Shown piece by piece: positions 15,236-53,960 of a DNA stretch of 64,000 bases; the first letter of the stretch is position 1; the number at the start of each line of letters is the position of its first letter. Position numbers and translations under genes: made by a program. A model generated the notes under the pieces. That model was not told where the DNA came from, made no database searches, and worked only from the letters and a program-made list of their open reading frames with translations. Location: the IMG/VR virus record IMGVR_UViG_2861084961_000001; one strand, given 5' to 3'. Source of the DNA: a virus. Its lineage: Duplodnaviria > Heunggongvirae > Uroviricota > Caudoviricetes.

Positions 15236-15397
15236 ATATGACTTTACATTGTTTTTCAAAGGGCATTGCTTTTCACTATACAGAAACAGAAATAATAATG
15301 GGGCATTCTACATATGTAGTAAATGTGGCAGAACAAAATATCTTCCAGATGTCAAATTTGAAGGTCCTTAAATGTTTGCATTAAATGGGCAATACAG

Positions 15398-20507: not shown

Positions 20508-21409
20508 ATGACTTTGCCATACGGCGTCATTTCTGACTGCCACTACCACAAATGGGATGCGTTCTCCACGACGAACGCTGAGGGGCTTAACTCCAGACTT
20601 GAAATACAGTTGGAAGCAACGAAAGAAGCAGCCATCGCCATGAAGAAGGCCGGTTGTAAGTACATGTTGGTTGCCGGTGATACATTTCACGTCCGAGGAA
20701 CTGTGTCCCCTTCTGTTTTGCATTACGTAACTGAAACGTACAAGTGGATTATCAACGAGCTTGATCTGACAGTAGTAATGCTGGCCGGTAATCACGATCT
20801 TGAAACCAACGATTCAGTATATAGCGCCAACGCAGCAGCATCGCTGAGTTCTATCGGCGTGGTAATCGTATGTGGCAAGCGCCCACACTCAATAAAAATT
20901 GGTGATGTCACTGTCCACCTGATTAGCTGGCGTAACAATCATGCGGAGCTTATCAGCGATCTGAAAGCATTACGTAAGAGCGTAGAAGGTGATAATCATG
21001 ACGTTGTTATCCATACATCCATTAACAAAGCCATTCCAACAATGCCTGACGTCGGTATCGATGCGCAGGAGTTAAAGGATATCGGCTTTCGTCTCGTGCT
21101 TAGTGGGCATTACCACAACCACAAAGAGGTCATTCCTGGAGTTATCAGTGTCGGTGCACTGACCATCAAAATTGGGGAGATGTTGGATCTCTGGCTGGTT
21201 ACATGATCGTAAACCCGGACGGCAGTTTCAGTCACTACGAAACCAGTGCGCCTAAATTCATTAACCTGGAAGATTATGTTGCCGATGATCAAATTCGCGG
21301 CAACTACGTGCGTTTCCGCGCCGTAATGAGAACGATGAAGAAGGCATTAAGTACCAGAACATCCTCAAAACAATGGGTGCAAAGGTGTTGTGTGCAACTT
21401 CATCCGTAA
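20508..21409 (+). CDS. SbcD/Mre11-like nuclease (calcineurin-like phosphoesterase), frameshift near 21195
   Basis: SDCHYH, AGDTFH, LAGNHD, SGHYHNH; CAAAGGAAAAACACATG start context. Confidence 0.65.
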
Positions 21410-21823
21410 GTCATCAATGATGGAAGGGACAGCAAGCACAACGGAAACCAGCAAAATCGATAGCCTGGGAGAGTCGGTATCTGCTTATTGCAAGATTGTC
21501 CACGATACTGACGGCGGATTTGATCTGAGCAAGTTGGATATTTTGTGTCAGGAAATCCTCACCGAAGCGGAGAGTTCGGAGGCTGTGTGAGGCAAAGTCG
21601 TTATGGGAGCTTTCGAGACTTTGCCATCACGATGAAAAGACTTGAACGAGGCCAGACGGTGATGTTTCACAAGCCCTACCCGCCACAAGGAAATCCCGTA
21701 GCGTTTTATCTTGGAAGGTTAACCAGAAAAGGCGTATTGAGGCGCAGATCCTTCCCGGCGCATACGGAGTTCAGATTGAAAGAAGGTCAAAAGCTAACAC
21801 ACGGTATCAAAGGTGTTATATGA
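21390..21823 (+). CDS. uncertain ORF fragments, possibly the C-terminal part of the SbcD-like protein
   Basis: ORFs 21390..21590 and 21545..21823 in alternating frames. Confidence 0.2.
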
Positions 21824-37742: not shown

Positions 37743-38167
37743 ATGTTAGGTTTCTTCAAAAAGAAAACTCGTAAAGCTGTTATCGAAGTCAAAAAATGGA
37801 GAACCGTGATGCGGTTGAGGCCACCGTGTGGGGCGCGTACATGATCTCCTATGCCGACGGCACATGTGACGCAAAAGAAATTGCCATTCTTGAGAAGACA
37901 ATTGCAGCTCTGCCTGCGTTTTCTCCGTTTGCTGGTGAAATTGCCCAAATGAGCGCCAATATCCGTGCTCGTTACGAAGCGTCCCCTCGTTCTGCTAATG
38001 CACAGGCTATTCGTGAGCTGTCTGATATTGCGGGTACTCCAGAGGCGGTCGATGTTCTGTGTCTGTGCCTTGATATTGCCGATCAGGACGGCATTGGTGA
38101 ACAAGAAGAGCAGGCACTGAAAAAGATCGCCCAGGCGCTTCAGTTGTCACTGGATGCTTATCTCTAA
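37743..38167 (+). CDS. TerB-like domain protein (frameshift at an A6 run near 37790)
   Basis: TerB-like helices with acidic motifs (DGTCDAKEIAILEKTIAAL, LCLCLDIADQDGIGEQEEQALKKIAQAL); ATG 37743 behind AAAAGGAAAACACATG is out of frame with ORF 37796..38167. Confidence 0.45.
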
Positions 38168-38328
38168 TGCTTGAGAGATTCCGGCTTGTGATCGTCATTG
38201 CTCTTCTGGTGATGGCGGTGTTGGTGGATTTACGGGAAAGATGATGTCTGTCATTTCTGATGGCGTCCTCATTGGTTTGGCGATCTACTTCGCTTATCCG
38301 TTAGTTCGTAAAGCAAAGTGTTAATGAC

Positions 38329-38352
38329 AAGGGCCAAATGGCCCTTGTGTTT
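38329..38352 (+). terminator. rho-independent terminator GGGCCA-AA-TGGCCC plus T-rich tail
   Basis: Hairpin after two small hydrophobic ORFs. Confidence 0.5.
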
Positions 38353-38431
38353 CGTTGACCGAAATAGAGAGTTTGCACCTTTACGTTTAGCTTGCTCCCC
38401 TTTTATGCCACATCACAATAAAGCCAATAAG

Positions 38432-38445
38432 AAAACAACTTGTTT
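38432..38445. promoter_or_regulatory. motif B palindrome (AAAACAA-C-TTGTTT)
   Basis: Upstream of 38464 gene. Confidence 0.45.
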
Positions 38446-38463
38446 AAGCATTAGGAAAAACAC

Positions 38464-39030
38464 ATGTGCAAGAAATGCAAAGCGATAGCTGATGAACAAA
38501 ACGCCTTATTCGAAGAAATGGATGCTAATGAACTGGTCAAAATGTTAGCCATTCTTCGAGGAATAGAAGACGTTTCCATATTTGAGAGAGTGGTTACAGC
38601 ACTTAATTTTGAGTCCACCTTTGAAGAGCCAACTCAGGTTGTAGCTTTAGCACATCATTTCGGTGTTCATTATCTTGCTGAAAAAGAGAGAGCTGATAAG
38701 TTGCAAGCGACTTTGGATATGGTGAGCGAGACTCAAGGAACTCATGACGGTAACAAAAGTGAGACGATTATTGCCAGCAAAGATCGTGAAATTGCCGGGC
38801 TTAAATCCTCTCTAACGATGTTGATGTCTGCAATTAACCTTATGTCTTCTAAAGCAGGTTATAAAATGCCATCACTAAACAGCGACGATCCGATGGCCGT
38901 TCGCCAGCTTTTAGGTGCAATGGCCGACCAGCTCGACGACACAAAGAGTCGCCTTGAAGACATGATGCGGGAGCTCACGCATCGCCATGACTTGAATAAG
39001 CAGCCACACAAAACGCAATACGCACTCTAA
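38464..39030 (+). CDS. hypothetical protein (188 aa)
   Basis: ORF track; AGGAAAAACACATG context. Confidence 0.45.
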   Translation: MCKKCKAIADEQNALFEEMDANELVKMLAILRGIEDVSIFERVVTALNFESTFEEPTQVVALAHHFGVHYLAEKERADKLQATLDMVSETQGTHDGNKSETIIASKDREIAGLKSSLTMLMSAINLMSSKAGYKMPSLNSDDPMAVRQLLGAMADQLDDTKSRLEDMMRELTHRHDLNKQPHKTQYAL

Positions 39031-39047
39031 TACTGCACCAGTCGACA

Positions 39048-39069
39048 GGGGGCGAAAGCCCCCATTTTT
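39048..39069 (+). terminator. rho-independent terminator GGGGGC-GAAA-GCCCCC plus T5
   Basis: Perfect stem plus ATTTTT. Confidence 0.6.
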
Positions 39070-39127
39070 ACGCCTTAAATCTGCTGTAACGCCTATGAAT
39101 GCAGCTTTTATGCCTTTTCAAGTTTGC

Positions 39128-39173
39128 GATAATTACACCAATAAGAAAACAAATTATTTAATGGTGTAATTAT
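39128..39173. promoter_or_regulatory. 12-bp perfect inverted repeat ATAATTACACCA / TGGTGTAATTAT enclosing a degenerate motif B; right arm overlaps the methyltransferase start codon
   Basis: Arms at about 39129-39140 and 39162-39173; ATG at 39172. Confidence 0.4.
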
Positions 39174-40857
39174 GAATACAGCCCTTTCCATCATCGACGA
39201 TGCCAGCTCAAACACGGCTATCGACTATCGTCAGGAAATGAATGTCATCCACGAAATCGTGGACGAGTGCGAGAAAGAGATCGCCTTCATGTATCAGGTA
39301 CACGACTTCGTTTATGGCGACGAACGCCACAACATGATTAATCGCCTGCTGAGACTAAACCATCGACCAGATGAAGATCGCTCGCGTTTAAATCGAGGTT
39401 GGTTGGATAAAGTTGATCTGGAATGGGTGAAACAGAATATTTGGGCCGAGTACTGGAGGAAGGTCACGGACATGACTAACGTTTTGCTGATCATGCCAGC
39501 TTCCCGTCGAGATGAGTGGCGCGAGCAGTTTATAGAGGGCAAACAGGAAGTCATCAAAACTGACAGAACCGGCTACCAGATGAAGGTTAAAGAGTTCGTT
39601 GGTGTACCGGAGTTCAAAGCAGAAACGGTCATACCCACGATGCTTAATTTGCTGAATGACAGGCACAAATATCTCTCTGAGCGCGTGTATGGCTTGTTTA
39701 AGGCGCTGAGTCCTGCGCACAAGACAAATAAGACAAACGGTTTCAGCGAGCGTCTGATAATCGCTGACTGCATTTCTGATTTCTGGCGGGACAGCGTTAG
39801 CGTGAACTATCGCAAAGAGGACTACATCGACGATCTGCGTGTCTTGCTTCATTTCTTCGCGCACAAAGAATTTATTACCATCAACCGCACTGCTGAGGTG
39901 CTATCAGCTGCGTATCGGGCAAACGACTGCCAGACCGGTGACTGGATGAACGTCGATGGAAATCTGATGCGCGTGAAGATGTTCAAGAACGGCAACGTTC
40001 ACTTTGAAATACATCCTGACGTGGCCTGGAAGTTGAATGAGGTGCTGGCTTACAGTATGCCTGCTGCAATCCCCGCGCCATGCCGAACTGCGCCAAAAAC
40101 ACGGGCACCAAAGCAGTTCGGTTTAATCCAGAAGACGATCTCCGTGCCGGTTCGCACTGCGCTTCGTGACGGGCGATTGAGCAAAGACAAAGGCGTATGG
40201 TACTTCTCTGATTCAGCTCTCCAGAAGTCGCAGGTGGAAGAGCTTGAGCGCACACTGAGCTTCATTGGCGGCGTGCAGGAGAAAAAGCACTGGCAGTTCC
40301 CGTATGACATCGGCCATACGCTAAATACGATTGTGGCTACCGGTTTAATACCGGATACAAAATCACACCAGTTCTACCCTACCCCACGCTTGATTGCTGA
40401 GTACGTTGCCAGAGCCACTGAATTGAAGCCTGGTGAGAAGCTGCTTGAGCCTCACGCCGGACGTGGGGATCTTCTGGCCTATATTAACGCCGATCTGGAA
40501 GATGTTACCTGCATAGAAATCGCACCTCTCTTCGCTGATATCCTGCGTGGAAAAGGGTATACGAACACGATTTGCTGCGACTTCATAAAGTGGTCTGAGG
40601 ACAACGCAGGTTATCAGTTCGACAAAATCGTTATGAACCCGCCGTACTCGCTTGGTCGTCATAGGGAGCACACGATGGCTGCGCTGGGGCATCTGAAAGT
40701 CGGCGGGCGTCTTGTAGCAGTATTGCCGGGCACTGCGCCAATACTGGACTGGATGACGATGGATAATTACGTTTATGCCAGAGGGAAGTCGTTTACCAAC
40801 GAGTTTGAAGACACAGGGATCACAGTCAGCGTATACGTTTTCAAACGCGTTAAATGA
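39172..40857 (+). CDS. DNA methyltransferase with about 400-aa N-terminal domain of unknown function and C-terminal NPPY-type catalytic domain
   Basis: LEPHAGRGDLL (SAM-binding-like) and DKIVMNPPYSLG; 561 aa intact. Confidence 0.6.
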   Translation: MNTALSIIDDASSNTAIDYRQEMNVIHEIVDECEKEIAFMYQVHDFVYGDERHNMINRLLRLNHRPDEDRSRLNRGWLDKVDLEWVKQNIWAEYWRKVTDMTNVLLIMPASRRDEWREQFIEGKQEVIKTDRTGYQMKVKEFVGVPEFKAETVIPTMLNLLNDRHKYLSERVYGLFKALSPAHKTNKTNGFSERLIIADCISDFWRDSVSVNYRKEDYIDDLRVLLHFFAHKEFITINRTAEVLSAAYRANDCQTGDWMNVDGNLMRVKMFKNGNVHFEIHPDVAWKLNEVLAYSMPAAIPAPCRTAPKTRAPKQFGLIQKTISVPVRTALRDGRLSKDKGVWYFSDSALQKSQVEELERTLSFIGGVQEKKHWQFPYDIGHTLNTIVATGLIPDTKSHQFYPTPRLIAEYVARATELKPGEKLLEPHAGRGDLLAYINADLEDVTCIEIAPLFADILRGKGYTNTICCDFIKWSEDNAGYQFDKIVMNPPYSLGRHREHTMAALGHLKVGGRLVAVLPGTAPILDWMTMDNYVYARGKSFTNEFEDTGITVSVYVFKRVK

Positions 40858-40876
40858 TAGGTAAATACTTACTTAA
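40857..40876. promoter_or_regulatory. motif A palindrome (ATAGGTAA-ATAC-TTACTTAA)
   Basis: Intergenic, upstream of 40919 gene. Confidence 0.4.
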
Positions 40877-40918
40877 TTTATGTAAGAATGTAGTAACTAA
40901 ACGATAAGAGAAAAACAC

Positions 40919-41623
40919 ATGAGCAACCTCCAGTTAGAGCATTTTAACGTCACAGGCCATTCCGATTTTCCTTTCAAGTTTACATTGAAAGGTTATGCGG
41001 AGGATGCGGTAGGCCAGATCATTATTGATAAAGGTATCGTTAAGTTTGAGGGGAATTTTGATGAATCCGCGAAAACATTCATAGACTTCGTTGCCAAACG
41101 TTGGAGCGAGCAATGGAAAGACCTGGAAAAGCGCGCCAATGAGTTTGATCGGTTCATGGATGCAATGGATACAGCAAAAGAGGCTCTGGCTGCCGGGACT
41201 CCGTTAGATCTGGAGTCACTTTTCAACGGCACAATGGCCTCTGCGATGTTCGCCACCATGTTCGCGGGTGAGTTCGTCCGCAGCGGTGCCAAAAACTACC
41301 TTGAGCTGGATTACAACGTCCCTGAAATTGGCGATTTCGTCGTTACCATCCAACGAAAAGAAGGTAAGACGCCAGGTGAACGCGTCGCAGAACTTGAGGC
41401 CGTTGTGGAGCAGCGTAACGGCGAGTGCGTTCGTTTGATCAACGAACGTAATGCTCTTCGTGAAGAAAAAATATGCACAGGTAGCAATACACGTAATGCA
41501 GCGGATATCTACTTCCAGTTAGTTGAGGAATGCCAGATTCCACCAGGTGGCTCTCTTGTCGATTACGTCAGACATTTAATGGCGGAAGTTAACTCCAGCC
41601 ATAAAGATGGTGAGGTGCGCTGA
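40919..41623 (+). CDS. hypothetical protein (234 aa)
   Basis: ORF track; GAGAAAAACACATG context. Confidence 0.45.
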   Translation: MSNLQLEHFNVTGHSDFPFKFTLKGYAEDAVGQIIIDKGIVKFEGNFDESAKTFIDFVAKRWSEQWKDLEKRANEFDRFMDAMDTAKEALAAGTPLDLESLFNGTMASAMFATMFAGEFVRSGAKNYLELDYNVPEIGDFVVTIQRKEGKTPGERVAELEAVVEQRNGECVRLINERNALREEKICTGSNTRNAADIYFQLVEECQIPPGGSLVDYVRHLMAEVNSSHKDGEVR

Positions 41624-42003
41624 TGTTTGGCATTGATGCACAGCGTATAGCAGCTTTTGCAAAAAGCCCTCTTGATAATCCCTTGTCTCGTAGTGAGCAA
41701 ATGGAGCTGGCAAGGCTTTTTCTTCACATTCAAAAACAGGCAGACGTTTTCAATAACATGCCTGATCAACCTATTCTGGATGGTCACATCCAGATGGTCA
41801 TTAACAGTCATGAGAAAGGCTGGGCTGCAATCGTCCCCTGCACAATTACATACAAGTTGGCGAAAGAGGTTCAAGAGTTTCGAAAAGCCAGTGTCGAATC
41901 GGAGTCTACCAAAGCCGCAATAAACACTCTTATTCGCATGGGGTTCACATGGGACGGTGGAGTTTACTGGCAAGCACCTCAACCCATTTTATCCGGCAAT
42001 TAG
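41623..42003 (+). CDS. hypothetical protein (126 aa)
   Basis: ORF track; start overlaps previous stop. Confidence 0.4.
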   Translation: MFGIDAQRIAAFAKSPLDNPLSRSEQMELARLFLHIQKQADVFNNMPDQPILDGHIQMVINSHEKGWAAIVPCTITYKLAKEVQEFRKASVESESTKAAINTLIRMGFTWDGGVYWQAPQPILSGN

Positions 42004-42062
42004 GCGCTACAAATCCTTCTGCATGAATAAATAAAGGCCATAACTTATGGCCTTAAATAAAT

Positions 42063-42113
42063 TGTTTTCTACCTTTTCTTATTTGTGAAAATAACCACAA
42101 CTAGAAAACAACG
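42063..42113. promoter_or_regulatory. motif B half-sites as inverted repeat TTGTTTTCT ... AGAAAACAA
   Basis: Upstream of the HD-hydrolase gene. Confidence 0.35.
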
Positions 42114-42122
42114 GAGTTAAGA

Positions 42123-42764
42123 ATGTCTAGTATTTCCGAAGCTCATATGTTCGCCGCTGGCGCTCATGGTGGCGTTGGTCAGAAAAGAAAATATACCGGC
42201 GAAGACTACATCAACCACCCGGTTGCTGTACGAGAGATTGTTGCATTGCATGACGGAACCGTGGATATGCAAATCGCGGCGCTTCTGCATGATGTGGTCG
42301 AAGACACCCATGTAACCATAGAGATGGTTCGTGATCACTTCGGTGAGCGCGTAGCTGAAATGGTTCAGGCTCTGACCAACATTGCAAGGCCAGAAGACGG
42401 CAATCGAATACAGCGTTTCATCATCAATGTCCGGGAGCTGGAGCAAAATCTCGACATGCAGACGCGCATGATCAAGCTGGCTGACCTGCTCGACAATACC
42501 TCTTCTATCGTGAGTCGCGATCCTGAGTTTTCAGCTATCTACCTTGCAGAGAAAGAGCTGATGCTGGACGTACTTTTTAACGGGAAGGAGATTGGTGCCA
42601 ACGCTGATGTTGTCGAGTACATGGAGAGGATAGGTATAGAACACCCGTTGCTATTAAGCGCAATGGCGAAAGTCACTGAAGGTATTGCGCTTCTGAAACC
42701 GGAACACATCAAACGTTATGAAAAACACAAATCGCTGATCTGGAGCGCGTGGGAGGCTGCATGA
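42123..42764 (+). CDS. HD-domain phosphohydrolase resembling the RelA/SpoT (p)ppGpp hydrolase domain
   Basis: AHGGVGQKRKYTGEDYINHPVAVREIVAL...AALLHDVVEDT matches the SpoT-type HD signature; 213 aa, no synthetase domain. Confidence 0.55.
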   Translation: MSSISEAHMFAAGAHGGVGQKRKYTGEDYINHPVAVREIVALHDGTVDMQIAALLHDVVEDTHVTIEMVRDHFGERVAEMVQALTNIARPEDGNRIQRFIINVRELEQNLDMQTRMIKLADLLDNTSSIVSRDPEFSAIYLAEKELMLDVLFNGKEIGANADVVEYMERIGIEHPLLLSAMAKVTEGIALLKPEHIKRYEKHKSLIWSAWEAA

Positions 42765-42907
42765 AGGTAGAAAAAATAGATGTTCTTTCCTTTGTGCTGA
42801 CGGATCTGGAACGTCTCGATCCGGTTCGAGTGATGATTGAAAACTACGAACCTGGTAAGGGAAGAATCACCATCACCTGCTACGGAAAAGCGTGGACTGC
42901 GGCTTAG
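42761..42907 (+). CDS. small ORF (48 aa) coupled to HD gene by ATGA overlap
   Basis: Read from sequence; below track length cutoff. Confidence 0.25.
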   Translation: MKVEKIDVLSFVLTDLERLDPVRVMIENYEPGKGRITITCYGKAWTAA

Positions 42908-42913
42908 TTTGCT

Positions 42914-43303
42914 ATGGGCGGTGATGATGTGCAGACGTTCATCAAGCGAGTTAGCAACGACTATCTAATCGACAATTTCGACCCTCAACTGCTAAGCACG
43001 GTCGACGATGACAACGATGCAAATCTGCTTTTCGTGAAGTCAGAAATCATAAAGTTACGAAGAGAGAGAGAAATCGACGCCGTACTAGCTCGTGAAATGT
43101 GGGACGAGGCGGAAAACGCCGATGACGTAAAAGAAAGCTGCTGTTGTTTCGGCGTCGGTAACAAACTGTTGAATCTCTTTGGTGATGATCCGTGGTATGC
43201 CGACTGGCCAACTGTACCAAACCCGAAATACCAGTATCTGGAACGCATTGTGAACGCGGTACGTGAAGGGCTGAAAGAGTTAGACAAGTTAGAGGCATCG
43301 TAA
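42914..43303 (+). CDS. hypothetical protein (129 aa)
   Basis: ORF track. Confidence 0.4.
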   Translation: MGGDDVQTFIKRVSNDYLIDNFDPQLLSTVDDDNDANLLFVKSEIIKLRREREIDAVLAREMWDEAENADDVKESCCCFGVGNKLLNLFGDDPWYADWPTVPNPKYQYLERIVNAVREGLKELDKLEAS

Positions 43304-43758
43304 TGAGAGAGAAAATCAAGAACCCGGTCGTCGTATTGTATAAACGGGAAACCAGCGATTCTTATGCGGTATCCATCACTGATGGAAGCCAGAACATGCA
43401 CGATGGTCTGCTAATGGCCGCCGTATCTCCTGATGATTCGGACTACCCTTTCGCCACTTTCGCTATGGTTGGTTACTACATGGCTGCCGAAATTGAGAAG
43501 TTGCGGGCGCAGAGAGACGCATTAGCGGCGGAGAATGCAGCCCTGAAAGAATCTGAGCGAGCATTCGATGCGATGTGTGCCGAGGAACACGGAGATAATT
43601 GGGTTAGCGAATTAACGGAGACTCCAGCCACCGATGCTTTTCTGGCTGAAGTACGTGCGCAGGGCGTGGAGATGTTTGCGGAGTGTGCATACACACTTGA
43701 ACATCATGATCACGCAGTAGCTTTTGCCGCCGAGCTACGTAAAGGAGATAGACAGTGA
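43303..43758 (+). CDS. hypothetical protein (151 aa)
   Basis: ORF track. Confidence 0.4.
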   Translation: MREKIKNPVVVLYKRETSDSYAVSITDGSQNMHDGLLMAAVSPDDSDYPFATFAMVGYYMAAEIEKLRAQRDALAAENAALKESERAFDAMCAEEHGDNWVSELTETPATDAFLAEVRAQGVEMFAECAYTLEHHDHAVAFAAELRKGDRQ

Positions 43759-44228
43759 GTGAGATTAACTACCTGGCGTTACGTGAGCGTTATTCACCAA
43801 AACCAGCGCCTAGATGCTCTGTTTGTGGCGAGGAAATGTCAATACAGCGCATATCTGGAGCACATGTCGTTTATGCCTGCTCCGGTGAGGGTGATGACGG
43901 ATATTTTAAGATAGGACGTACTTTTGCAGACGAACATTATGAAAAATCACGCGTAACAGTAGTTGATGATAGTGATCCCGATGTGATTGCACTGCTGGAA
44001 GAACTGGATAAAAGACGACATTACATCGGACGTCTTGAGCAGGAGAACGTAGAGATGGCCCTAACGCTTGAGAAGCTGCGTGTTGAGATGAAGGCAGCCA
44101 AATCAAAACTCAACGAGCAGCGTGAGTATTACGAAGGTGTTATCTCGGATGGAAGCAAGCGCATAGCCGCTCTTCTTTGCAAGGACAATCTTGTCAGCAC
44201 CACGAACATTGAAGGTGAAAGAAGATGA
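43755..44228 (+). CDS. hypothetical protein (157 aa) with N-terminal CxxC...C cluster and coiled coil
   Basis: ORF track. Confidence 0.4.
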
Positions 44229-44548
44229 CCACATCGCATTCTGCTATTACCCAGGAAAAAGCCTTCAACATACTCGAACGACTAGAGACGCTCGCTACGG
44301 AGGAGGAGATATCCCTGGAGAAACTGGTTGAGTTCAGCCGTGTGATATTGCGTCGCAAGAACGATATGGAGCGGCTGACATCTGGCGCTCCATCCTTATC
44401 AGCCAGGCGAACACTTTGTTGCAGCTTCTGCAACAAATCCCAGTACGCCGTCAAAAAGTTAATTGCTGGGGACGCCGTTTTCATCTGCGACGAGTGTGTG
44501 GATGTGTGCAACAGAATTATCCGGGGAGAGAAAGAGGGATCAGCATGA
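44225..44548 (+). CDS. small protein with ClpX-type zinc-binding domain at C-terminus
   Basis: [35 protein letters not shown] matches the ClpX N-terminal C4 zinc-finger pattern. Confidence 0.5.
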
Positions 44549-45096
44549 AATTTTCCAAATTTTCTGAGTCGGTGAATCGTATTTTGTCCAACAACCACAG
44601 CCATCGTCGCGATATGGATGTAACGATCGTTGTTCATTCGCCTGGTCGCATCGGTTCAACACCATCAGTTGAGGTTCAGTCAATTCAGGCGGGTTTTGAT
44701 TGGGATGCCGGGCAAGTGATGATTTTTCCAGCACAGCCACTGACCACGCTAACACCGGAGCAGGTTGCTGATATTACTGAAAGTGTGCACAAAGGCCAGT
44801 CATGGCACGCGTATCAGGAATACAAGAAGCATAAAGAGCAGTTGGAAAAATTGTCGATGGAGTTGGAAGCCGCTAAACAGAGGGAAAAAGATCTGTTTAT
44901 GGAAAATGTTCGACTTAAGTCAGGTATAGCCGGTCTGATACACCTCGGTATTCGATATGCGGATGTCGAGGTCATGAAAATAGCTGGAGATGCCCAGCTT
45001 TCTACTCCCTGTACTGACAGCATCATAAACAGTATTGCATCAGGCGTTTTCACCAAAGAGGGTCAGCATGATGAGAACAGTAGAAGTTCGCGCTGA
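44545..45096 (+). CDS. hypothetical protein (183 aa)
   Basis: Internal ATG 44545 overlapping upstream stop inside track ORF 44416..45096. Confidence 0.4.
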
Positions 45097-45256
45097 AGAT
45101 GTAACCCCAGGCGATGTGGTCATAACATCTAAAGGCAAACGATGTGCGGTTAAATCTTTCTGGATGAACGGTGAAAAAGTGACTCTGTTCGGTACGGATG
45201 GTTCCGAAACTGATTATGACTACGACGAATTGCTTGTTGTTGAGAGAGCTACCTAA
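45068..45256 (+). CDS. hypothetical small protein
   Basis: Track ORF 45035..45256, RBS-supported internal start. Confidence 0.3.
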   Translation: MMRTVEVRAEDVTPGDVVITSKGKRCAVKSFWMNGEKVTLFGTDGSETDYDYDELLVVERAT

Positions 45257-45792
45257 TGACCACCTTTACCAAAGAACAGTTAATCTCCCATGCACGCGAA
45301 AGCGTTAGTTATCTGGAAGACTTGAAAGGACGTGTTAGTAAAGAAGGAGCGGACTGCAAAGTTGTTCATGAGATGGTTGAACGAGATCTAAAACTGGCTC
45401 GAATTGCGCTGACCTCACTGGAGGCAGAGCCAGTGGCGTGGCAGGTAACACTCACAAAAAACGATCAGGAATCAGTCTCTATTATTTACCGTGACTGTGC
45501 AGAGAAAGATACATGGGTTCGGATATATGAGTCACTCGGTTCTGTCGCACATGTTGCCCCGCTTTACATGGCGCAGCCAGAACCGTCGAAGGAGGAGAAA
45601 GGACGTTCAGTCATCCAGGGTAAAGCCGATAATTCACCATTGCCGCGCTACCAGGTTATCGAATTAACAATGCTGGTTAAACAATTGGTCAGCCAACTGA
45701 AAAAAGCAAAACCTGATTGCAAATTACCGGATAGGGCGATGGATTATCTTTTGCGGAACGGACTGCTAAGTGTGGAGGATGCCTTACGATGA
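45256..45792 (+). CDS. hypothetical protein (178 aa)
   Basis: ORF track. Confidence 0.4.
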   Translation: MTTFTKEQLISHARESVSYLEDLKGRVSKEGADCKVVHEMVERDLKLARIALTSLEAEPVAWQVTLTKNDQESVSIIYRDCAEKDTWVRIYESLGSVAHVAPLYMAQPEPSKEEKGRSVIQGKADNSPLPRYQVIELTMLVKQLVSQLKKAKPDCKLPDRAMDYLLRNGLLSVEDALR

Positions 45793-46067
45793 TTGAAATG
45801 ACAAAAGAAGAACTAACACAGGCAACAAAGGATTACGGAAAAATGCACATCGCACATCGTATGGCGAATGTGTTACTGGCCTTGTCTGAACAAAAGCCAT
45901 CTGCGTTTGTAATGAAAGATGATTTGGCCGATCCGGCAATTGTTTCGACTCCGGCATATTTAGATATTGAGGATGCGGAACAAAAAACGATTGGGATATT
46001 GTCGCGCTTTATGCCGATCCCTTTCCTGTCATCGGCGACACTACTGCTCTTGTGGACGATATTTTAA
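45789..46067 (+). CDS. hypothetical protein (92 aa)
   Basis: ORF track. Confidence 0.35.
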   Translation: MIEMTKEELTQATKDYGKMHIAHRMANVLLALSEQKPSAFVMKDDLADPAIVSTPAYLDIEDAEQKTIGILSRFMPIPFLSSATLLLLWTIF

Positions 46068-46375
46068 ACATTCTCGCGCTTCTTGAGGCTGGCGATTGGT
46101 CAGAACATTGCACTAAAACGGAGTTAGGCGGTCGGCTTGAAAGAGAGATTACACAACTTATTGGTGATGCCCAAAATGATTTGTCACCTGAGCATCTCCC
46201 CTGCGATGTAGTCCTTGTGCCAGGGATGAGGATACACGAAGGCGTCAGAACGAAAACATTATTAACCGCATTACAGAGAAGAGCCGAACTAAGCTCGCGG
46301 ATAAAGTTGATGCCATCCAAAATATTTGATGTCGTCAAATTTACGCCATCGCAACATACTGAGAGAGATAAATGA
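46052..46375 (+). CDS. hypothetical protein (107 aa)
   Basis: ORF track. Confidence 0.35.
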   Translation: MDDILNILALLEAGDWSEHCTKTELGGRLEREITQLIGDAQNDLSPEHLPCDVVLVPGMRIHEGVRTKTLLTALQRRAELSSRIKLMPSKIFDVVKFTPSQHTERDK

Positions 46376-46998
46376 GCACGGTAGCGAAAGATCTCACAGA
46401 AGATATTCTCAATGAAATTATTGTTGGTGCAAATACCTCGCTTGAGCAACTTCTTGCGTTAGCACTGAGAGCCGAACGTCGAGACAGAAATCGTTTTTAT
46501 GAGCGATTACCTGGGAAACGACCAGATAGATCAGATGAAGAAGGTTGCGATATAGACTACATGGAGCCTTCAGAGATTTATCAACTTGGTAAAGATGACG
46601 GCTGGAACGCTTATCACGATGCTGTGATGAAGTTGGATGAAAAAGTTAAACCTCTTTCTCGAACGGTAGATCACGGTTTCCGCGATAACTGCGAATGCTC
46701 TAGTTGCCAGACCACGGCCCGTATTTGTTCCGAATTGACAGATAAATCCAGCCTAATCTACGAAGTTAATGTAGGCGGTAATACATGGGTCGAATGCACA
46801 AGAGCTGCATACGTAAGAGCAAAAGACAAGGGTGAATTAACCAGAGTTGTTGCCCATCACCCAAATAATGAGCTTAAAGATCACCAAATTCGAGAACTGG
46901 TGAACGAGTTGAGGGATATTGCGGTTCAGTACCACGGAACGCAGCAATTGCGGGAGAAGATTGCCAGAGCAGTGAACAACTCAGTCCGTAAAAAATAA
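46372..46998 (+). CDS. hypothetical protein (208 aa)
   Basis: ORF track; followed by hairpin AGGCCCCAT...ATGGGGCCT at 47006-47030. Confidence 0.45.
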   Translation: MSTVAKDLTEDILNEIIVGANTSLEQLLALALRAERRDRNRFYERLPGKRPDRSDEEGCDIDYMEPSEIYQLGKDDGWNAYHDAVMKLDEKVKPLSRTVDHGFRDNCECSSCQTTARICSELTDKSSLIYEVNVGGNTWVECTRAAYVRAKDKGELTRVVAHHPNNELKDHQIRELVNELRDIAVQYHGTQQLREKIARAVNNSVRKK

Positions 46999-47440
46999 GC
47001 AATAGTACGATAAAGAGGCCCCATGCTCTTGATGGGGCCTGTAGCAACTAGCGTTATGGACGCTGGTTTACGTACTCAATGATCGCTTTGATAATCGCGA
47101 ACATCGGCGGCACGATTTTGAACAGTAAGTTAACCATAACAGGCCTCACTTAGTTTTATCGCGCCTAGCTGCAAATACCTTTGGGCTTGCCTTTGCAGTT
47201 GCAATATCTGTAGTCGCCAGATACTTACGGCACGATTTCGAGTTAAGGTAAGGTTTTAGAGTCACCAAAAACCTGGACTTAAATCTTCTTTGAGAACAAC
47301 GATGTTTAGTAAATGGTCATTATTACCTGGTATGACCACTCAACGTTTCTTGATGAATCCAGTACATTCGGTTAATCTTAATTCAGTCGCCAGATACTTA
47401 TGGCTCAGGAACAGAGCCGCAAACTCTGTTTCCTTTTAAA

Positions 47441-47469
47441 AAGCCCAGCCTAGTCAACTGGGCTTTTTA
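47441..47469 (+). terminator. rho-independent terminator AAGCCCAG-loop-CTGGGCTT plus T5, preceded by a second hairpin at about 47408-47433
   Basis: Stem-loops with T-run inside a 760-bp non-coding stretch. Confidence 0.5.
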
Positions 47470-47763
47470 ATGTCTATTTTTAACCCAATGAACCTTCAAT
47501 ACCGCAACATCAGTGTCTTGCGAATTAAGATAGTGTGTATAGGTTATACATGCAAGTGCATAACTCTGTGGATAACTCAGGAAGGAAAAAGTAGCTTCCG
47601 CGCAATTTAGGCCAGACAAGGCTTTCGCAAAAATCAACGGAGAGAAAAAAATTTGTTAAAAATAACGTTTGTTGGAATTGTATATATTTATGCCTTTCAA
47701 TAGTTAGCATCTTATTAACATCTTTTTTAAGAGATAGAGTTCAAAAATATATAGCTTCAACAT

Positions 47764-47783
47764 ATACTGTATGCATATACAGT
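47764..47783. promoter_or_regulatory. LexA (SOS) box TACTGTATGCATATACAGTA
   Basis: Perfect CTGT-N8-ACAG palindrome about 17 bp upstream of the umuD-like start. Confidence 0.7.
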
Positions 47784-47800
47784 ATTAAGAGGCGAGTATT

Positions 47801-48190
47801 ATGGGCTTCCCTTCTCCTGCGGCGGATTATGCTGAGAGCCGTATTTCTCTTGATCAGCAGATAATTAGACATCCTTCAGCGACCTACTTCTTGAGGGCAG
47901 CTGATAGCCATCATCGTGAGGGAATATTGCAGGGTGCATTGCTGGTGGTCGATTCCTCACTCACTCCTGTTGATGGATCTCTTCTTGTATGTGCTCTGGA
48001 TGGGGAATATCGCGTAAAAAGATACCGGAAGTATCCACGTCAGCATCTGGAGGATTTAAGAACTGGTAAGAAGGAAGCATTGCCAAAGGATGATGATGGA
48101 TGCACGGGCAGCAATGCCGTGTTTGGTGTGATCACTCACATTATCAACGACGCAAGAAGTGGCGAGTTTGATGATTGTCCTGTGATGTAG
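47801..48190 (+). CDS. umuD: UmuD-prime-like protein (S24 peptidase fold, begins at the position matching the UmuD cleavage product)
   Basis: MGFPSPAADYAESRISLDQQIIRHPSATYFLRA...DGEYRVKRY matches the recalled UmuD core from residue 25 onward. Confidence 0.65.
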   Translation: MGFPSPAADYAESRISLDQQIIRHPSATYFLRAADSHHREGILQGALLVVDSSLTPVDGSLLVCALDGEYRVKRYRKYPRQHLEDLRTGKKEALPKDDDGCTGSNAVFGVITHIINDARSGEFDDCPVM

Positions 48191-48201
48191 GAGAACTGTT
48201 T

Positions 48202-48222
48202 AGGTGGTGCATTGCACCACCT
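48202..48222. terminator. perfect palindromic hairpin AGGTGGTGCA-T-TGCACCACCT between convergent umuD-like and mrp
   Basis: 10-bp perfect stem; T-run on plus strand. Confidence 0.45.
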
Positions 48223-48227
48223 TTTTA

Positions 48228-49328
48228 TCACACTGCGCGGAATGCGATTTCGCCAGGTATTACTTCACCTTGCCAATACATTTGGGCAGCAACGCGATCT
48301 GCGAGGTCACGATAAATAGCCGTAAATTCGCTATCTGGACGACTAATAACGGTTGGTGTTCCGTTATCCAGATCCTCACGAAGAGAGATATGAAGTGGCA
48401 TTTGGCCTAACAACTGCGTGTTGTATTTCTCGGCCAGTTTCTGTGCGCCACCGGTGCCAAAAATTGGCTCGTGATGACCGCAGTTACTGCAAATATGCAC
48501 ACTCATGTTTTCGACGATACCTAGTACCGGCACTTCGACTTTTTCGAACATCACAATGCCTTTCTTCGCATCGATCAGCGCGATGTCTTGCGGCGTAGTT
48601 ACCACAACCGCACCAGTTACAGGAATGTTCTGCGCCAGCGTCAATTGAATATCACCAGTGCCCGGCGGCATATCGAGAACGAGATAGTCCAGATCAGGCC
48701 ACAGTGTTTCCTGCAACATCTGCATCAGCGCCTTGCTGGCCATCGGTCCACGCCACACCATTGCATTGTCGTCGGTGACCAGATAACCAATAGAGTTGGT
48801 TGCCAGGCCATGAGACATGATAGGTGCCATGTGAGTACCGTCCGGTGAGGTTGGACGTTGGTTTTCCGCACCCAGCATGGTTGGAATTGATGGACCGTAG
48901 ATATCGGCATCCAAAATACCAACTTTCGCACCTTCAGCAGCCAACGCCAGTGCCAAGTTTACTGCTGTGGACGATTTGCCTACACCGCCCTTGCCTGAGC
49001 TGACGGCGATGATGTTCTTAACGCCATTAATGCCTGGTTGGTTTTTGACGCGCTTAAGCGTGGCAATGTTGTACGACAGCTTCCAGTCGATAGCCTTTGC
49101 GCCAGTGATACGGAGCAGATCACCACTACATTGCTCTTTCAGGTCTTCAAAAGGCTTATTCCACACGAAAGGCATGATTAGTTCGACATGCAGTGTGTCA
49201 TCCATCAACGCAACATGGTGTAACGCTTTAAGCGTAGTCAGGTTGTGCTTCAGGGTTGGGTGCTGAAAATTAGCCAGCGTACCGGCTACCATTGCTCTCA
49301 GGGCATCCGGCGATTTGGACTCGCTCAT
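48228..49328 (-). CDS. mrp: Mrp/ApbC Fe-S cluster carrier ATPase, intact, host-type
   Basis: 366 aa; deviant Walker A SSGKGGVGKSSTAVNLA, CxxC motif; near-identical to recalled E. coli Mrp. Confidence 0.9.
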   Translation of the reverse strand: MSESKSPDALRAMVAGTLANFQHPTLKHNLTTLKALHHVALMDDTLHVELIMPFVWNKPFEDLKEQCSGDLLRITGAKAIDWKLSYNIATLKRVKNQPGINGVKNIIAVSSGKGGVGKSSTAVNLALALAAEGAKVGILDADIYGPSIPTMLGAENQRPTSPDGTHMAPIMSHGLATNSIGYLVTDDNAMVWRGPMASKALMQMLQETLWPDLDYLVLDMPPGTGDIQLTLAQNIPVTGAVVVTTPQDIALIDAKKGIVMFEKVEVPVLGIVENMSVHICSNCGHHEPIFGTGGAQKLAEKYNTQLLGQMPLHISLREDLDNGTPTVISRPDSEFTAIYRDLADRVAAQMYWQGEVIPGEIAFRAV

Positions 49329-49485
49329 CCCGTCTCCTTTATTTTAATTTGCGCAATTGTCGCCTTGTAGTGTACTCCAGCTACGACATTTAATCATTTA
49401 TGAGAAATGCTGTTATCACATGGCAGACATAAGGCCATTTTGTTACTATCAAGCCCCTTTTCACTACAAAGAAGTAATGCCTACT

Positions 49486-51519
49486 ATGACCCAAGTCGCG
49501 AAGAAAATTCTGGTGACGTGCGCGCTGCCGTACGCTAACGGCTCAATCCACCTCGGCCATATGCTGGAGCACATCCAGGCTGATGTCTGGGTTCGTTACC
49601 AGCGAATGCGCGGCCACGAGGTTAATTTCATCTGTGCCGACGATGCCCACGGTACGCCGATCATGCTGAAAGCACAGCAGCTTGGTATCACACCGGAACA
49701 GATGATTGGCGAAATGAGCCAGGAACACCAGACTGATTTCGCAGGCTTTAACATCAGCTATGACAACTATCACTCGACGCACAGCGAAGAGAACCGCCAG
49801 CTGTCTGAGCTTATCTATACTCGCCTGAAAGAGAACGGTTTTATTAAAAACCGCACTATCTCTCAGTTGTACGACCCGGAAAAAGGCATGTTCCTGCCGG
49901 ATCGTTTTGTGAAAGGCACCTGTCCGAAATGTAAAGCGCCAGATCAATACGGCGATAACTGTGAAGTTTGCGGCGCGACCTACAGCCCGACTGAACTGAT
50001 TGAGCCGAAATCGGTAGTTTCTGGCGCTACGCCGGTAATGCGTGATTCTGAACACTTCTTCTTTGATCTGCCCTCTTTCAGCGAAATGTTGCAGGCATGG
50101 ACCCGCAGCGGTGCGTTGCAGGAGCAGGTGGCAAACAAAATGCAGGAGTGGTTTGAATCTGGTCTGCAACAGTGGGATATCTCCCGCGACGCACCTTACT
50201 TCGGTTTTGAAATTCCGAACGCGCCGGGTAAATATTTCTACGTCTGGCTGGACGCACCGATTGGCTACATGGGTTCCTTCAAGAATCTGTGCGACAAGCG
50301 CGGCGACACTACCAGCTTCGATGAATACTGGAAGAAAGACTCCACCGCCGAGCTGTACCACTTCATCGGTAAAGATATCGTTTACTTCCACAGCCTGTTC
50401 TGGCCTGCCATGCTGGAAGGCAGCAACTTCCGCAAGCCGACCAACCTGTTTGTTCACGGCTATGTGACGGTGAACGGCGCGAAGATGTCCAAGTCTCGCG
50501 GCACCTTTATTAAAGCCAGCACCTGGTTGAATCATTTTGACGCTGACAGCCTGCGTTACTACTACACCGCCAAACTGTCTTCGCGCATTGATGATATCGA
50601 TCTCAACCTGGAAGATTTCGTTCAGCGCGTGAATGCCGATATCGTGAACAAAGTGGTTAACCTGGCCTCCCGTAATGCGGGCTTTATCAACAAACGTTTT
50701 GACGGCGTGCTGGCAAGCGAACTGGCTGACCCGCAACTGTACAAAACCTTTACTGATGCCGCTGAAGTGATTGGCGAAGCATGGGAAAGCCGCGAATTTG
50801 GTAAAGCTATCCGTGAAATCATGGCATTGGCTGACCTGGCTAACCGCTATGTCGATGAACAGGCTCCGTGGGTGGTGGCGAAGCAGGAAGGACGCGATGC
50901 CGATCTGCAGGCGATTTGCTCTATGGGCATTAACCTGTTCCGCGTGCTGATGACTTACCTGAAACCGGTACTGCCGAAACTGACAGAACGTGCGGAAGCA
51001 TTCCTCAATACGGAACTGACCTGGGATGGCATCCAGCAACCGCTGCTGGGCCATAAAGTGAATCCGTTCAAAGCACTGTATAACCGTATCGACATGAAAC
51101 AGGTGGAAGCATTGGTGGAAGCGTCTAAAGAAGAAGTGAAAGCTACTGCCGCGCCAGTTACTGGCCCGCTGGCAGACGACCCGATTCAGGAAACCATCAC
51201 CTTTGACGACTTTGCCAAAGTTGACCTGCGCGTGGCGCTGATCGAAAACGCAGAGTTTGTTGAAGGTTCTGACAAACTGCTGCGCCTGACGCTGGATCTC
51301 GGCGGTGAAAAACGTAATGTCTTCTCAGGCATCCGTTCCGCTTATCCAGACCCACAGGCACTGATTGGCCGTCACACCATTATGGTGGCTAACCTGGCTC
51401 CGCGTAAAATGCGTTTCGGTATCTCCGAAGGCATGGTGATGGCTGCTGGCCCCGGCGGGAAAGACATCTTCCTGTTAAGCCCGGATGCTGGTGCTAAACC
51501 TGGCCACCAGGTTAAGTAA
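49486..51519 (+). CDS. metG: methionyl-tRNA synthetase, intact, host-type
   Basis: [29 protein letters not shown] (HIGH-type), KMSKS, C-terminal tRNA-binding domain; start at ATG 49486 inside track ORF 49357..51519. Confidence 0.95.
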
Positions 51520-51540
51520 TTAAGCAACCATTCTTCACAA

Positions 51541-51566
51541 TGCCCGGCAATACGCTGGGCATTTTC
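51541..51566 (+). terminator. rho-independent terminator after metG
   Basis: TGCCCGGC-AATAC-GCTGGGCA plus TTTT. Confidence 0.6.
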
Positions 51567-51602
51567 ATATAGACACAATCCCTTCTGACTTTAACAAACC
51601 CT

Positions 51603-51668
51603 AAAACAATTTGTTTTCTGCCTTTTGTTGATTGAGATAATAAGCCACATAAGAAAACAAATTGTTTC
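51603..51668. promoter_or_regulatory. two motif B palindromes (AAAACAA-T-TTGTTTT and GAAAACAAATTGTTTC)
   Basis: Immediately right of the metG terminator, upstream of 51681 gene. Confidence 0.45.
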
Positions 51669-51680
51669 GGAGTGGTTGAA

Positions 51681-51980
51681 ATGTTGAACATTACCCAAGC
51701 CTACCAGGTGGCATTGATCAGTTCATCTCATACATCAGAGGAAGATGCTCGCCGATTCATGATCGCAAGCAATGAGCTGGATTGGGTTTCGCAAATTGAC
51801 GGCGGTTGTATTGTCCACGCCGGGTTACAGGATGATGTCTGGAAAGACGACTTGCGTCGATATGGTATATCCGAAGGCGCGATTGCTAACATTCAGAAAG
51901 TACTTGATGTAGGCTTTGACTCTGTACATTTTGATTGTGGTGCGCCGGTCGTTGAAGGGCTTGAGTGCTGGAACTGGTAA
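51681..51980 (+). CDS. hypothetical protein (99 aa)
   Basis: ATG 51681 within track ORF 51672..51980; motif-B sites upstream. Confidence 0.4.
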   Translation: MLNITQAYQVALISSSHTSEEDARRFMIASNELDWVSQIDGGCIVHAGLQDDVWKDDLRRYGISEGAIANIQKVLDVGFDSVHFDCGAPVVEGLECWNW

Positions 51981-52025
51981 CAGATATTAAAGCATTGGTA
52001 GTTTGTTTTTAGGATTATCAAAGAA

Positions 52026-52759
52026 ATGAAAAAGTTGAAAAGTTTAGAAATCCCTGGGACTGGTTATAAATTCTTTATGGACAACGCGGAGTGTGCGCCT
52101 AACGCGTTGGAAAAAATACAAAGTCTTATCAACAGCCTTACTGAAGAAGCGAAAGAACTGAAGAGCGAGGCGACAAAGGACAATACAGCTAAAATCCAAT
52201 GCTTAAATCTCGTCTCTTATTGTTTATATCAAGTATCCAAAACACTGATTAAAGGCAATATCTATTACGACGATGAAGACACCTCGACACCTGAAGAAAA
52301 GATAGCGATGAAGAACTCTATGAAGATATCTCTACTAGTGCGGGTCACGCTGCCTTCGATGCTATGGGTAAATCGTCAGGCATCAGATCATTTGTTGAAC
52401 AGAACAATTCGACAATAATGATTGAGTACTGTGAACAAACAAGCTCCAAGGCCATACATGTTCTTCACGATGTTGCTGCAGGGGTTCGTTGTGAGGCTGA
52501 AGCGGTAAGAAAAGATGTATTTGGTGCAGACAGTAATACCGTGAAAGCGTTTATCAACAGTGCTCTGCTAAATTCTTACTCAAACCTTATAGTCAATGCG
52601 GCACTATGCGCAAATTCAGGTGAAGAACACATTGTCATAACCGAAACCAAACATGAGCATCAACAGTCACCAACCATAGAAGAGGTAACTGCATTGGCTA
52701 TCAAACAGGCGAGTGAAATTAGTGATGAAATTCTCTCTCTGCTAAACAAAACTAGGTAA
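52026..52759 (+). CDS. hypothetical protein (ORFs 52026..52418 and 52364..52759, probably one gene)
   Basis: ORF track; overlapping frames. Confidence 0.35.
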
Positions 52760-52869
52760 AACATTGATAATGGCGGTCACAATTTGATTCTTTTCTATAA
52801 GAATCCGTTGATCGCCACTACTCCCCTTCCATACCTGCAATCACATCCTTAAATATCAATAGGTTGTAG

Positions 52870-53660
52870 TTGTTTATACAAACAAGAAAACAACTGAATA
52901 ACAGATCAACGAAACGTCAACGCTTTCACCCGATTTGGTCTAAAAAATTGACGTTTTCACACATCACTTCTTATACCCGCAATCCTACGCAGCAGACAGC
53001 GCCACAGCGTCCAATTTTCACCACAGACGACCCAACACACCACCAACAAAAACACACGCTCAAAATCGCTCTCGTTGCGTTACATAACCATATAAACAAC
53101 TTATTTTCAGGCATAACAAAACAACTAAATAACACATACGCAATTCCCAAAAACAACCAACCTCTTTATTGCAGGCTACCGAAAAGACCCACCTCTTCTT
53201 CCCAGGCTACCGGACAACCAACCTAACTTTCACAGGCAATCCGAAAACATTCATGCGCGCGATACCCACGACACGCCATTCCCCAAACAGCGAAGAAACA
53301 CCTGAACCACCGAAACCCCAACGAAGCCTGTAACCGCAAGGATTCTCTCAATCCCAAAAGACACGAAACATAACAATCACGGGAAACGCCATTACCCAAT
53401 ACACGAATAACTACAAAAGCCTTTCACACACTCCAGACAAACAACTCAAACACAATAACGAAAGGAATCGCCCACCTGCCATTACTCCATACACGGAGAA
53501 GAACAAGCACCAAAACGACGAGAACATCCCACAGAAGAACCACCGCAAAACTAACGAAACCATTTACACCGACAGAGAGAACAACACACCCAATTCACCA
53601 ACAGAATTAGTCGCCGTATAGAACGTTCTGGAAGGAGTGAGCATTAACGTCCATAGAGAG
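52870..53660. repeat. strand-asymmetric CA-rich non-coding region containing CAGGCTACCG-type direct repeats
   Basis: Plus strand almost free of G or T runs for about 800 bp; only ORF there is low-complexity; repeats near 53170, 53200, 53235. Confidence 0.45.
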
Positions 53661-53779
53661 GTTGAGACAGATAAAACACGAAGAAAACACAACATGTATA
53701 GCGAAGAAGCCAGGTATGTATAAGTGGGGAGGGAAGGAGGGGTGTCGCCTCCTTTTTCGTATTTATTCAACTCCTGATT

Positions 53780-53960
53780 TTATCCCCCGTAACACCCCTA
53801 CGGTCAGCCTTCGGTCCATACAGGGAAAGGCTGCATCCCGCTACAGAAACGGCTGGGTTGCCTTTGGGGAACGGCTGGAGGTTTTCAGGGAAACGGTCGA
53901 GTTGCCTTTGTGGATTTCGGGAAAAGGCTCGATGCCGGTTCAGGAACGGCGGCGTACCGG
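53780..53960. repeat. array of about six GGGAAACGGCT-like direct repeats spaced 22-30 bp
   Basis: CAGGGAAAGGCTG, CAGAAACGGCTGG, GGGAACGGCTGG, GGGAAACGGTCG, GGGAAAAGGCTCG, CAGGAACGGCGG. Confidence 0.45.

Follow-up and report, generated by a model that had tools for sequence, protein, structure and literature searches.

A viral DNA stretch of 64,000 nucleotides (hereafter the window) carries a gene that the first-pass annotation had read as encoding a small alarmone hydrolase (SAH), a stand-alone protein with the SpoT/RelA hydrolase signature that could blunt the host stringent response or alarmone-based defence. Is the protein such an enzyme, is it new, and what would it do for the mobile element that encodes it?

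A single-domain hydrolase with a complete catalytic set

The ORF listing of the window contains exactly the reading frame called in the first pass, which begins with ATG and encodes 213 aa (Table 1). Our Pfam search identifies the HD_4 domain (PF13328) in residues 8-135 with a score of 67.7 bits against a cut-off of 27.2, well beyond chance (E 1.2e-18); the generic HD profile gives a second hit with a lower score. Neither a synthetase domain nor a TGS or ACT domain accompanies these two, in agreement with the first-pass description of a protein devoid of synthetase and regulatory domains. The NCBIfam model TIGR00691 (spoT_relA) matches only across its positions 1-123 of 687 (E 3e-24), and every hit of a PDB sequence search with the SAH is SpoT, Rel, MESH1 or a small alarmone hydrolase.

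We aligned the SAH residue by residue with SSU5_099 of Salmonella phage SSU5, the N-terminal 210 aa of E. coli SpoT (MG1655) and a segment of MESH1. The motif on which the first pass had relied is present as H15-x2-V-G-Q-K-R22-K23-x2-G26-x2-Y29-x2-H32-P33 followed by A52-A-L-L-H56-D57-V-V-E60-D61-T62. Columns that are invariant among the four sequences comprise H15, Q20, R22, G26, Y29, H32 and P33, the two stretches A52-A53-L54-L55-H56-D57 and E60-D61-T62, and further downstream K118-L119-A120-D121 and N125. SpoT has a Ser at the position of K23, and its residues H72/D73 align with H56/D57 of the SAH. In an alignment of 74 homologues, R22, Y29, H32, H56, E60, D61, K118, D121 and N125 are invariant, while K23 and D57 are at least 90% conserved. 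These eleven residues (R22, K23, Y29, H32, H56, D57, E60, D61, K118, D121 and N125) make up the catalytic set of the SAH, and none of the catalytic His and Asp residues is missing: the metal-binding H...HD...D tetrad is complete (H32, H56, D57 and D121), and the Glu-Asp dyad E60/D61 as well as the substrate-contacting R22/K23, Y29 and N125 are all present. We take the roles of these residues, with H/HD/D as metal ligands, the Glu-Asp dyad, and Arg, Tyr and Asn as substrate contacts, to be those of RelSeq, SpoT and MESH1.

An AlphaFold2 model built on the 74-sequence alignment is all-helical, with a mean pLDDT of 96.8 and a pTM of 0.92. When this model was compared with the PDB using Foldseek, all 41 matches with E at or below 0.001 were hydrolases of the RelA/SpoT-homologue (RSH) superfamily, with a top probability of 1.00. 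They include human and fly MESH1, T. thermophilus Rel, SpoT, the P. aeruginosa SAH, C. glutamicum RelH, a Leptospira SAH and Bacteroides Aph1. The assignment to the small alarmone hydrolases is thus borne out by profile search, residue-level alignment and fold. All structural matches are at most 28% identical to the SAH, except for a 129-column partial alignment to Aph1 at 32%; with that exception no fold match in the PDB exceeds 28%, and therefore the PaSpo subfamily, to which we assign the protein below, has no solved structure.

Human and Drosophila MESH1 (3NR1, 5VXA and 3NQW) are the best structural and near-best sequence matches, sharing the metal ligands and the ED dyad at about 26-37% identity. 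The P. aeruginosa SAH (6YVC), C. glutamicum RelH (7QOD) and Bacteroides Aph1 (7SMG) have the same fold (target-normalised TM-score 0.64-0.77) at 20-24% identity; these are chromosomal housekeeping or immunity genes, whereas the window SAH is phage-plasmid cargo. The long RSH enzymes (E. coli and A. baumannii SpoT; T. thermophilus, S. equisimilis and B. subtilis Rel) have the HD_4 domain and catalytic residues of the SAH but carry in addition the synthetase, TGS and ACT domains that control their hydrolase. The substrates of these bacterial stand-alone SAHs are (p)ppGpp, (p)ppApp or both, and some of the enzymes serve self-protection against (p)ppApp toxins.

Relative to homologues of about 175 aa, the SAHs of the phage-plasmid clade have an insertion of about 20 aa and a C-terminal tail, which in our model form three confident extra helices (residues 161-170, 175-189 and 193-212). 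These helices are missing in the shorter relatives and in the solved SAHs, and also in MESH1 (about 179 aa).

Orthology to PaSpo-SSU5

The SAH is 87% identical to SSU5_099 (YP_006906731.1) over 213 of 213 aa without gaps. The two loci are also syntenic, with a DUF4942 methyltransferase gene upstream and a coupled phiTE_072-like gene downstream in both. SSU5_099 is annotated as a 'metal-dependent phosphohydrolase' and, in GenBank, as a 'putative guanosine polyphosphate pyrophosphohydrolase/synthetase'. A tblastn search of the phage collection with the SAH finds exactly one locus in SSU5, so SSU5_099 must be the gene that Jimmy et al. refer to as the SSU5 SAH and assign to PaSpo. Following the subfamily naming of Atkinson 2011 and the classification of Jimmy 2020, the full-length identity and synteny with this PaSpo representative place the window SAH in PaSpo, a membership assigned by orthology only.

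The SSU5 SAH, described as stand-alone, neutralises all five toxSAS against which it was tested, namely CapRel, PhRel2, FaRel2, PhRel and FaRel (Jimmy et al. 2020, PMC7229694). The SAH of PVP-SE1 and ATfaRel of C. marina likewise neutralise all five validated toxSAS, and MESH1 also neutralises toxSAS (PMC7229694). The same study proposed that incoming phages bypass alarmone-mediated defence by means of encoded hydrolases (PMC7229694), so that the counter-defence idea of the first-pass annotation had already been put forward. PaSpo-SSU5 has been co-expressed for the production of CapRel-SJ46 (PMC9712102) and also to produce PhRel2. In a 2024 study of FaRel2, PaSpo-SSU5 detoxifies the toxin, for which leaky expression suffices, and acts by removal of the tRNA modification (PMC11245113). 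[quoted passage not shown] The term 'alarmone hydrolase' therefore understates the likely substrate range.

ATfaRel resembles the window SAH in being a single-domain RSH hydrolase, one that neutralises all tested toxSAS in vivo and repairs pyrophosphorylated tRNA in vitro. It differs in belonging to another SAH subfamily and in residing in a three-gene toxin-antitoxin locus with its own toxin, whereas the window SAH has no synthetase partner.

The first-pass observation is therefore correct, but the protein is already known as the orthologue of a tested and routinely used enzyme. Near-identical alleles are found in RefSeq as 'HD domain-containing protein', from which the window allele differs by one residue. 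Relative to PaSpo-SSU5 it carries 28 substitutions, none of them in the catalytic motifs and 19 of them within residues 149-208. Both genes reside on SSU5-like phage-plasmids, PaSpo-SSU5 in Salmonella and the window SAH in E. coli. The neutralisation data belong to the PaSpo-SSU5 allele. In the literature that we searched we found no in-vitro enzymology of PaSpo-SSU5, whose activity is documented by in-vivo neutralisation in over-expressing cells, and no demonstration that deleting the gene from SSU5 or another phage-plasmid affects sensitivity to defence. On phage-encoded SAHs in counter-defence or host manipulation in their native context, the same search gave co-expression uses and hypotheses only.

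Local organisation of the SAH gene

The first-pass annotation had placed the gene in a tightly coupled operon of unknown genes (Table 1). Coupling holds on the 3' side, where the SAH stop overlaps the next start in an ATGA at 42761-42764 and further overlaps of 1-4 nt follow at 43303 (TAATG), 43755 (GTGA), 44225 (ATGA) and 44545. It does not extend upstream, where a 120-nt gap containing a hairpin separates the SAH from the preceding gene pair. A simple scan scores the hairpin as a terminator on the minus strand only, and transcripts may be delimited or processed at this site. Because of this gap and hairpin, the coupled string probably starts with the SAH. Our sigma-70 promoter scan gave no convincing promoter 5' of the SAH, and neither a tRNA nor any Rfam family was detected in the window.

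Table 1. Features of the SAH locus and of other parts of the window discussed in the text.
Feature	Position in window	Strand	Basis or remark
SAH CDS (PaSpo subfamily, RSH HD_4 domain)	42123..42764	+	ORF, Pfam, alignments, model, dN/dS
GGAG Shine-Dalgarno of SAH	42113..42116	+	6 nt 5' of ATG, read from sequence
Clade-specific extra helices (SAH residues ~157-213)	42591-42761	+	alignment and model
Hairpin, perfect 9-bp palindrome AAGGCCATA-ACT-TATGGCCTT	42034..42054	.	sequence and terminator scan
TerB-like protein	37796-38167		just upstream of SAH
DUF4942 + DNA methyltransferase	39172-40857	+	upstream of SAH; Pfam, PHROG, PADLOC
phrog_8364 protein, 234 aa	40919-41623	+	upstream of SAH; PHROG
phrog_10451 protein	41623-42003	+	upstream of SAH, overlaps the 234-aa protein gene; PHROG
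'phiTE_072 family' / phrog_3451 protein, 180 aa	42761..43303	+	coupled via ATGA to SAH; ORFs, PHROG
In-frame TAG in the 'phiTE_072 family' gene	42905-42907		TGG (Trp49) in pEC881_2 and SSU5
phrog_492 protein	43303-43758	+	coupled, overlapping; PHROG
Ead/Ea22-like protein	43755-44228	+	coupled, overlapping; Pfam, PHROG
Stand-alone ClpX C4 zinc-finger protein, 107 aa	44225-44548	+	PF06689, E 1e-15
Accessory block, SAH to S24 peptidase gene (~6 kb)	42123-48228		deleted in pGMI17-003_2
Region of metG	48228-51519		tRNA-synt_1g E 5e-166, tRNA_bind domain
cobT	814-2921		broken into 2 ORFs
dnaE	4434-7952		broken into at least 6 ORFs
~790-bp stretch missing from pEC881_2 at this place	15280-16070		
ORF with phage P22 NinX domain	15398-15814		E 4e-17
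SbcC-like ATPase	~21000-23650		split into 3

The description of the surrounding genes as unknown does not stand for the Ead/Ea22-like protein, the ClpX zinc-finger protein and the DUF4942-methyltransferase, all of which are recognised by Pfam. The zinc-finger protein, within the coupled string of the SAH, is essentially the C4 zinc finger of ClpX without the AAA+ body; it could be a decoy or a modulator of substrate or adaptor recognition by ClpXP. The upstream methyltransferase is a 561-aa fusion of DUF4942 and an N6-adenine methyltransferase (phrog_6263) that PADLOC matches to its mad2 and type II MTase models. The gene for a TerB-like protein likewise lies just upstream of the SAH. An orphan methyltransferase of this kind would fit a region with anti-restriction or accessory functions.

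Reliability of the sequence

Relative to plasmid pEC881_2, the window contains about 50 indels, nearly all of them single-base deletions in homopolymer runs (A4-7, C4-5, G3-6 and T4-5). These deletions span positions 1-38300 and 45060-53900 (examples are at 1960, 3258, 4981, 5155, 5856, 6604, 6950, 7479, 22114 and 22720), and none lies within 38229-45060. They break dnaE, cobT and the SbcC-like ATPase gene into pieces and truncate other genes. We considered decay of the element as the cause of this fragmentation and rejected it, as the pattern of one-base homopolymer deletions indicates uncorrected long-read or homopolymer sequencing error, or error in assembly, rather than pseudogenisation. 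Pseudogene calls in the window are therefore suspect, and the reading frame of the SAH, which lies in the interval free of homopolymer indels, is reliable. In the gene next to the SAH, the TAG codon divides the 180-aa reading frame into ORFs of 48 and 129 aa; it could be a genuine nonsense mutation or a miscalled base, the latter perhaps with the same origin as the homopolymer deletions.

An accessory gene of SSU5-like phage-plasmids under purifying selection

The 6 kb around the SAH match non-mobilisable E. coli plasmids of about 110 kb at 95-98% identity over 81-91% of the query, and Salmonella phage SSU5 at 87%. Outside these 6 kb, the window is collinear with pEC881_2 and plasmids like it, and in a sibling record phage tail genes adjoin the same arm. 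These comparisons identify the window as part of an SSU5/pHCM2-like phage-plasmid of E. coli of about 110 kb, in keeping with the mobile-element setting suggested in the first pass. The window covers the replication, nucleotide-metabolism and accessory arm of this element, with genes for a cobT-like protein, dnaE, a 5'-3' exonuclease, a RecA-like protein, RepB, SbcCD-like proteins, nrdAB, thyA, DHFR, RNase H, a TerB-like protein and the DUF4942-methyltransferase, the SAH block, and genes for an S24 peptidase, apbC, metG, a DEAD-box helicase and ParB.

Two further parts of the arm are worth recording. A full-length methionyl-tRNA synthetase gene, metG, is divergently placed beside apbC (Fe-S carrier), about 5 kb from the SAH, a probable tRNA 3'-end repair enzyme. 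The stretch encoding a NinX domain is an example of mosaic cargo in SSU5-like elements.

We then determined how widely the gene occurs. Counting at least 80% coverage as presence, 36 of 5,426 complete E. coli genomes have the SAH gene, always on a plasmid and never on the chromosome. The adjacent DUF4942-methyltransferase gene is found in 187 complete E. coli genomes, and roughly one-fifth of the related E. coli elements therefore carry the SAH. Near-full-length homologues are encoded by 185 plasmids in PLSDB: 40 at identities of at least 95%, with Escherichia among the matches listed, 100 at 80-90% (Salmonella pHCM2-like, Enterobacter and Citrobacter) and 28 at 60-80%. A Klebsiella clade lies near 52%. 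The gene is accessory and dispensable. Its dN/dS of 0.19 against SSU5 and 0.07 against pEC881_2 is the signature of purifying selection, with the substitutions concentrated in residues 149-208.

Loss of the gene is frequent. It is missing from several of the SSU5-like E. coli phages represented in the phage collection, and several E. coli sibling plasmids retain only its first 43 nt. In pGMI17-003_2 (5001-5180) the SAH is cut at codon 15, where a piece of IS1 transposase comes next and apbC adjoins it; the whole accessory block of about 6 kb, from the SAH to the S24 peptidase gene, has thus been deleted. Among homologues, P0010 (annotated 'AAA family ATPase') and P0012-14 (no Pfam match) were considered as new architectures and rejected, being deletion or fusion chimeras that lack the catalytic N-terminal half. 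P0012-14 join the N-terminus of the 234-aa protein encoded upstream to the C-terminal two-thirds of the SAH. The two halves of phrog_3451 (287 positions) match the N-terminus (aa 11-102) of that 234-aa protein and the whole 180-aa protein encoded downstream; accordingly, the genes flanking the SAH appear to exist as one fused gene in other phages. Given these fusions and the phrog_3451 shared by the flanking proteins, the SAH block lies in a recombination and deletion hot spot.

Proposed activity and alternative roles

We infer the substrates of the window allele and its role in native phage-plasmid biology from the known family and the tested orthologue. The SAH is a single-domain HD-family protein of the RSH superfamily and would act as an Mn2+-dependent 3'-pyrophosphohydrolase. 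H32, H56, D57 and D121 would hold the metal ion and E60 and D61 would activate a water molecule for removal of the 3'-diphosphate, which the enzyme would strip from (p)ppGpp and (p)ppApp. Judging from the toxins that its orthologue neutralises, the pyrophosphorylated 3'-CCA end of tRNA would be cleaved as well, and the phage-plasmid-specific helices (about residues 157-212) might tune substrate choice towards this pyrophosphorylated tRNA. Since the SAH is without the synthetase, TGS and ACT regulatory domains of long RSH enzymes, it is expected to be constitutively active. It would cancel the output of toxSAS systems that serve abortive infection or superinfection exclusion, CapRel, PhRel and FaRel among them, and may protect from injected (p)ppApp-synthetase toxins too; a lowered host (p)ppGpp level would be a side or second benefit.

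The gene very probably encodes a PaSpo-type SAH, carried as cargo in the early/accessory region of the phage-plasmid, whose likeliest role is protection of the element and its carrier cell from toxic RSH synthetases. Two observations weigh against this reading: the gene is present in only about one-fifth of the methyltransferase-bearing E. coli elements, with remnants in some lineages, and the differences from the tested PaSpo-SSU5 fall mostly in the C-terminal third. In its native setting, we tentatively propose that it may serve as an anti-defence and host-protection gene during establishment or lytic growth in enterobacteria with CapRel- or FaRel-type toxSAS, and it might also shield the carrier from injected (p)ppApp-synthetase toxins, with the extra helices perhaps tuning its substrates. 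Some of these toxSAS sit on rival temperate elements, as in the case of the SJ46 phage, which encodes CapRel-SJ46.

Alternatively, the main role could be manipulation of the host stringent response, in which the SAH would lower (p)ppGpp during lytic growth or plasmid maintenance and thereby keep host transcription, translation and replication of the element's DNA running. The family of the enzyme is indeed one of (p)ppGpp hydrolases, its SpoT/MESH1 catalytic set is complete, and it shares an arm of the element with the replication and nucleotide-supply genes dnaE, nrdAB, thyA and DHFR. Among large lytic phages, which have to reprogramme their hosts, distant stand-alone SAHs occur commonly (for example in phiKZ-like and Erwinia jumbo phages), and such a role has been proposed by the authors of other phage genomes (PMC12846349). 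The published phenotypes of the orthologue, however, are neutralisation of toxSAS, mostly of tRNA-modifying toxins without an alarmone product. We consider this role somewhat unlikely to be the main one, and the two functions are not mutually exclusive.

A metabolic role on another 3'- or 2'-phosphorylated nucleotide, NADPH as for MESH1 or PAPS, is brought to mind by the crystal structures of MESH1, among the best structural matches, with NADPH and PAPS (5vxa and 9chy) and by the documented promiscuity of SAHs (PMC9765508). Rescue by the orthologue from toxins that make (pp)pApp or pyrophosphorylated tRNA nevertheless requires activity on 3'-pyrophosphate esters, which makes such a physiological substrate improbable.

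Could the SAH instead be the type IV antitoxin of an adjacent toxSAS toxin, in a FaRel/ATfaRel-like addiction or defence module of its own? SAHs of the PbcSpo subfamily do serve as toxSAS antitoxins (PMC7229694), and the window SAH is translationally coupled to neighbours of unassigned function. Pfam finds no RelA_SpoT synthetase domain in any neighbour, however, PADLOC finds no toxSAS model among them, and the SSU5 orthologue stands alone. A phmmer search with full-length SpoT, run with filters off against all 747 six-frame fragments of the 64-kb window, returned the SAH only, though a very divergent synthetase could escape such a single-sequence search. Membership of a toxSAS toxin-antitoxin locus is largely refuted by these searches, and we regard it as very improbable.

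Finally, the many frameshifted genes of the window, the nonsense codon in the very next gene and the truncated or chimeric SAH remnants of related plasmids could suggest a decaying or non-functional ORF, but for the window allele this is refuted, and hardly credible, given that the frameshifts are homopolymer undercalls absent around the gene and that its full-length ORF, one residue off the RefSeq alleles, retains all catalytic residues and a low dN/dS.

Implications for SSU5-like phage-plasmids

Phage-encoded alarmone hydrolases are the proposed viral answer to abortive infection based on RSH enzymes such as CapRel, PhRel and FaRel. The enzyme described here is the version that an E. coli phage-plasmid carries of the best-used example, PaSpo-SSU5, and it introduces no new principle. 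The gene is found widely among SSU5-like elements, namely those of E. coli, Salmonella, Klebsiella, Enterobacter and Citrobacter; it is accessory, often lost and under purifying selection. This combination of spread, frequent loss and selection makes SSU5-like phage-plasmids a natural in-vivo test system for counter-defence, in which naturally occurring SAH-positive and SAH-negative variants are well suited to testing the native role of the enzyme.
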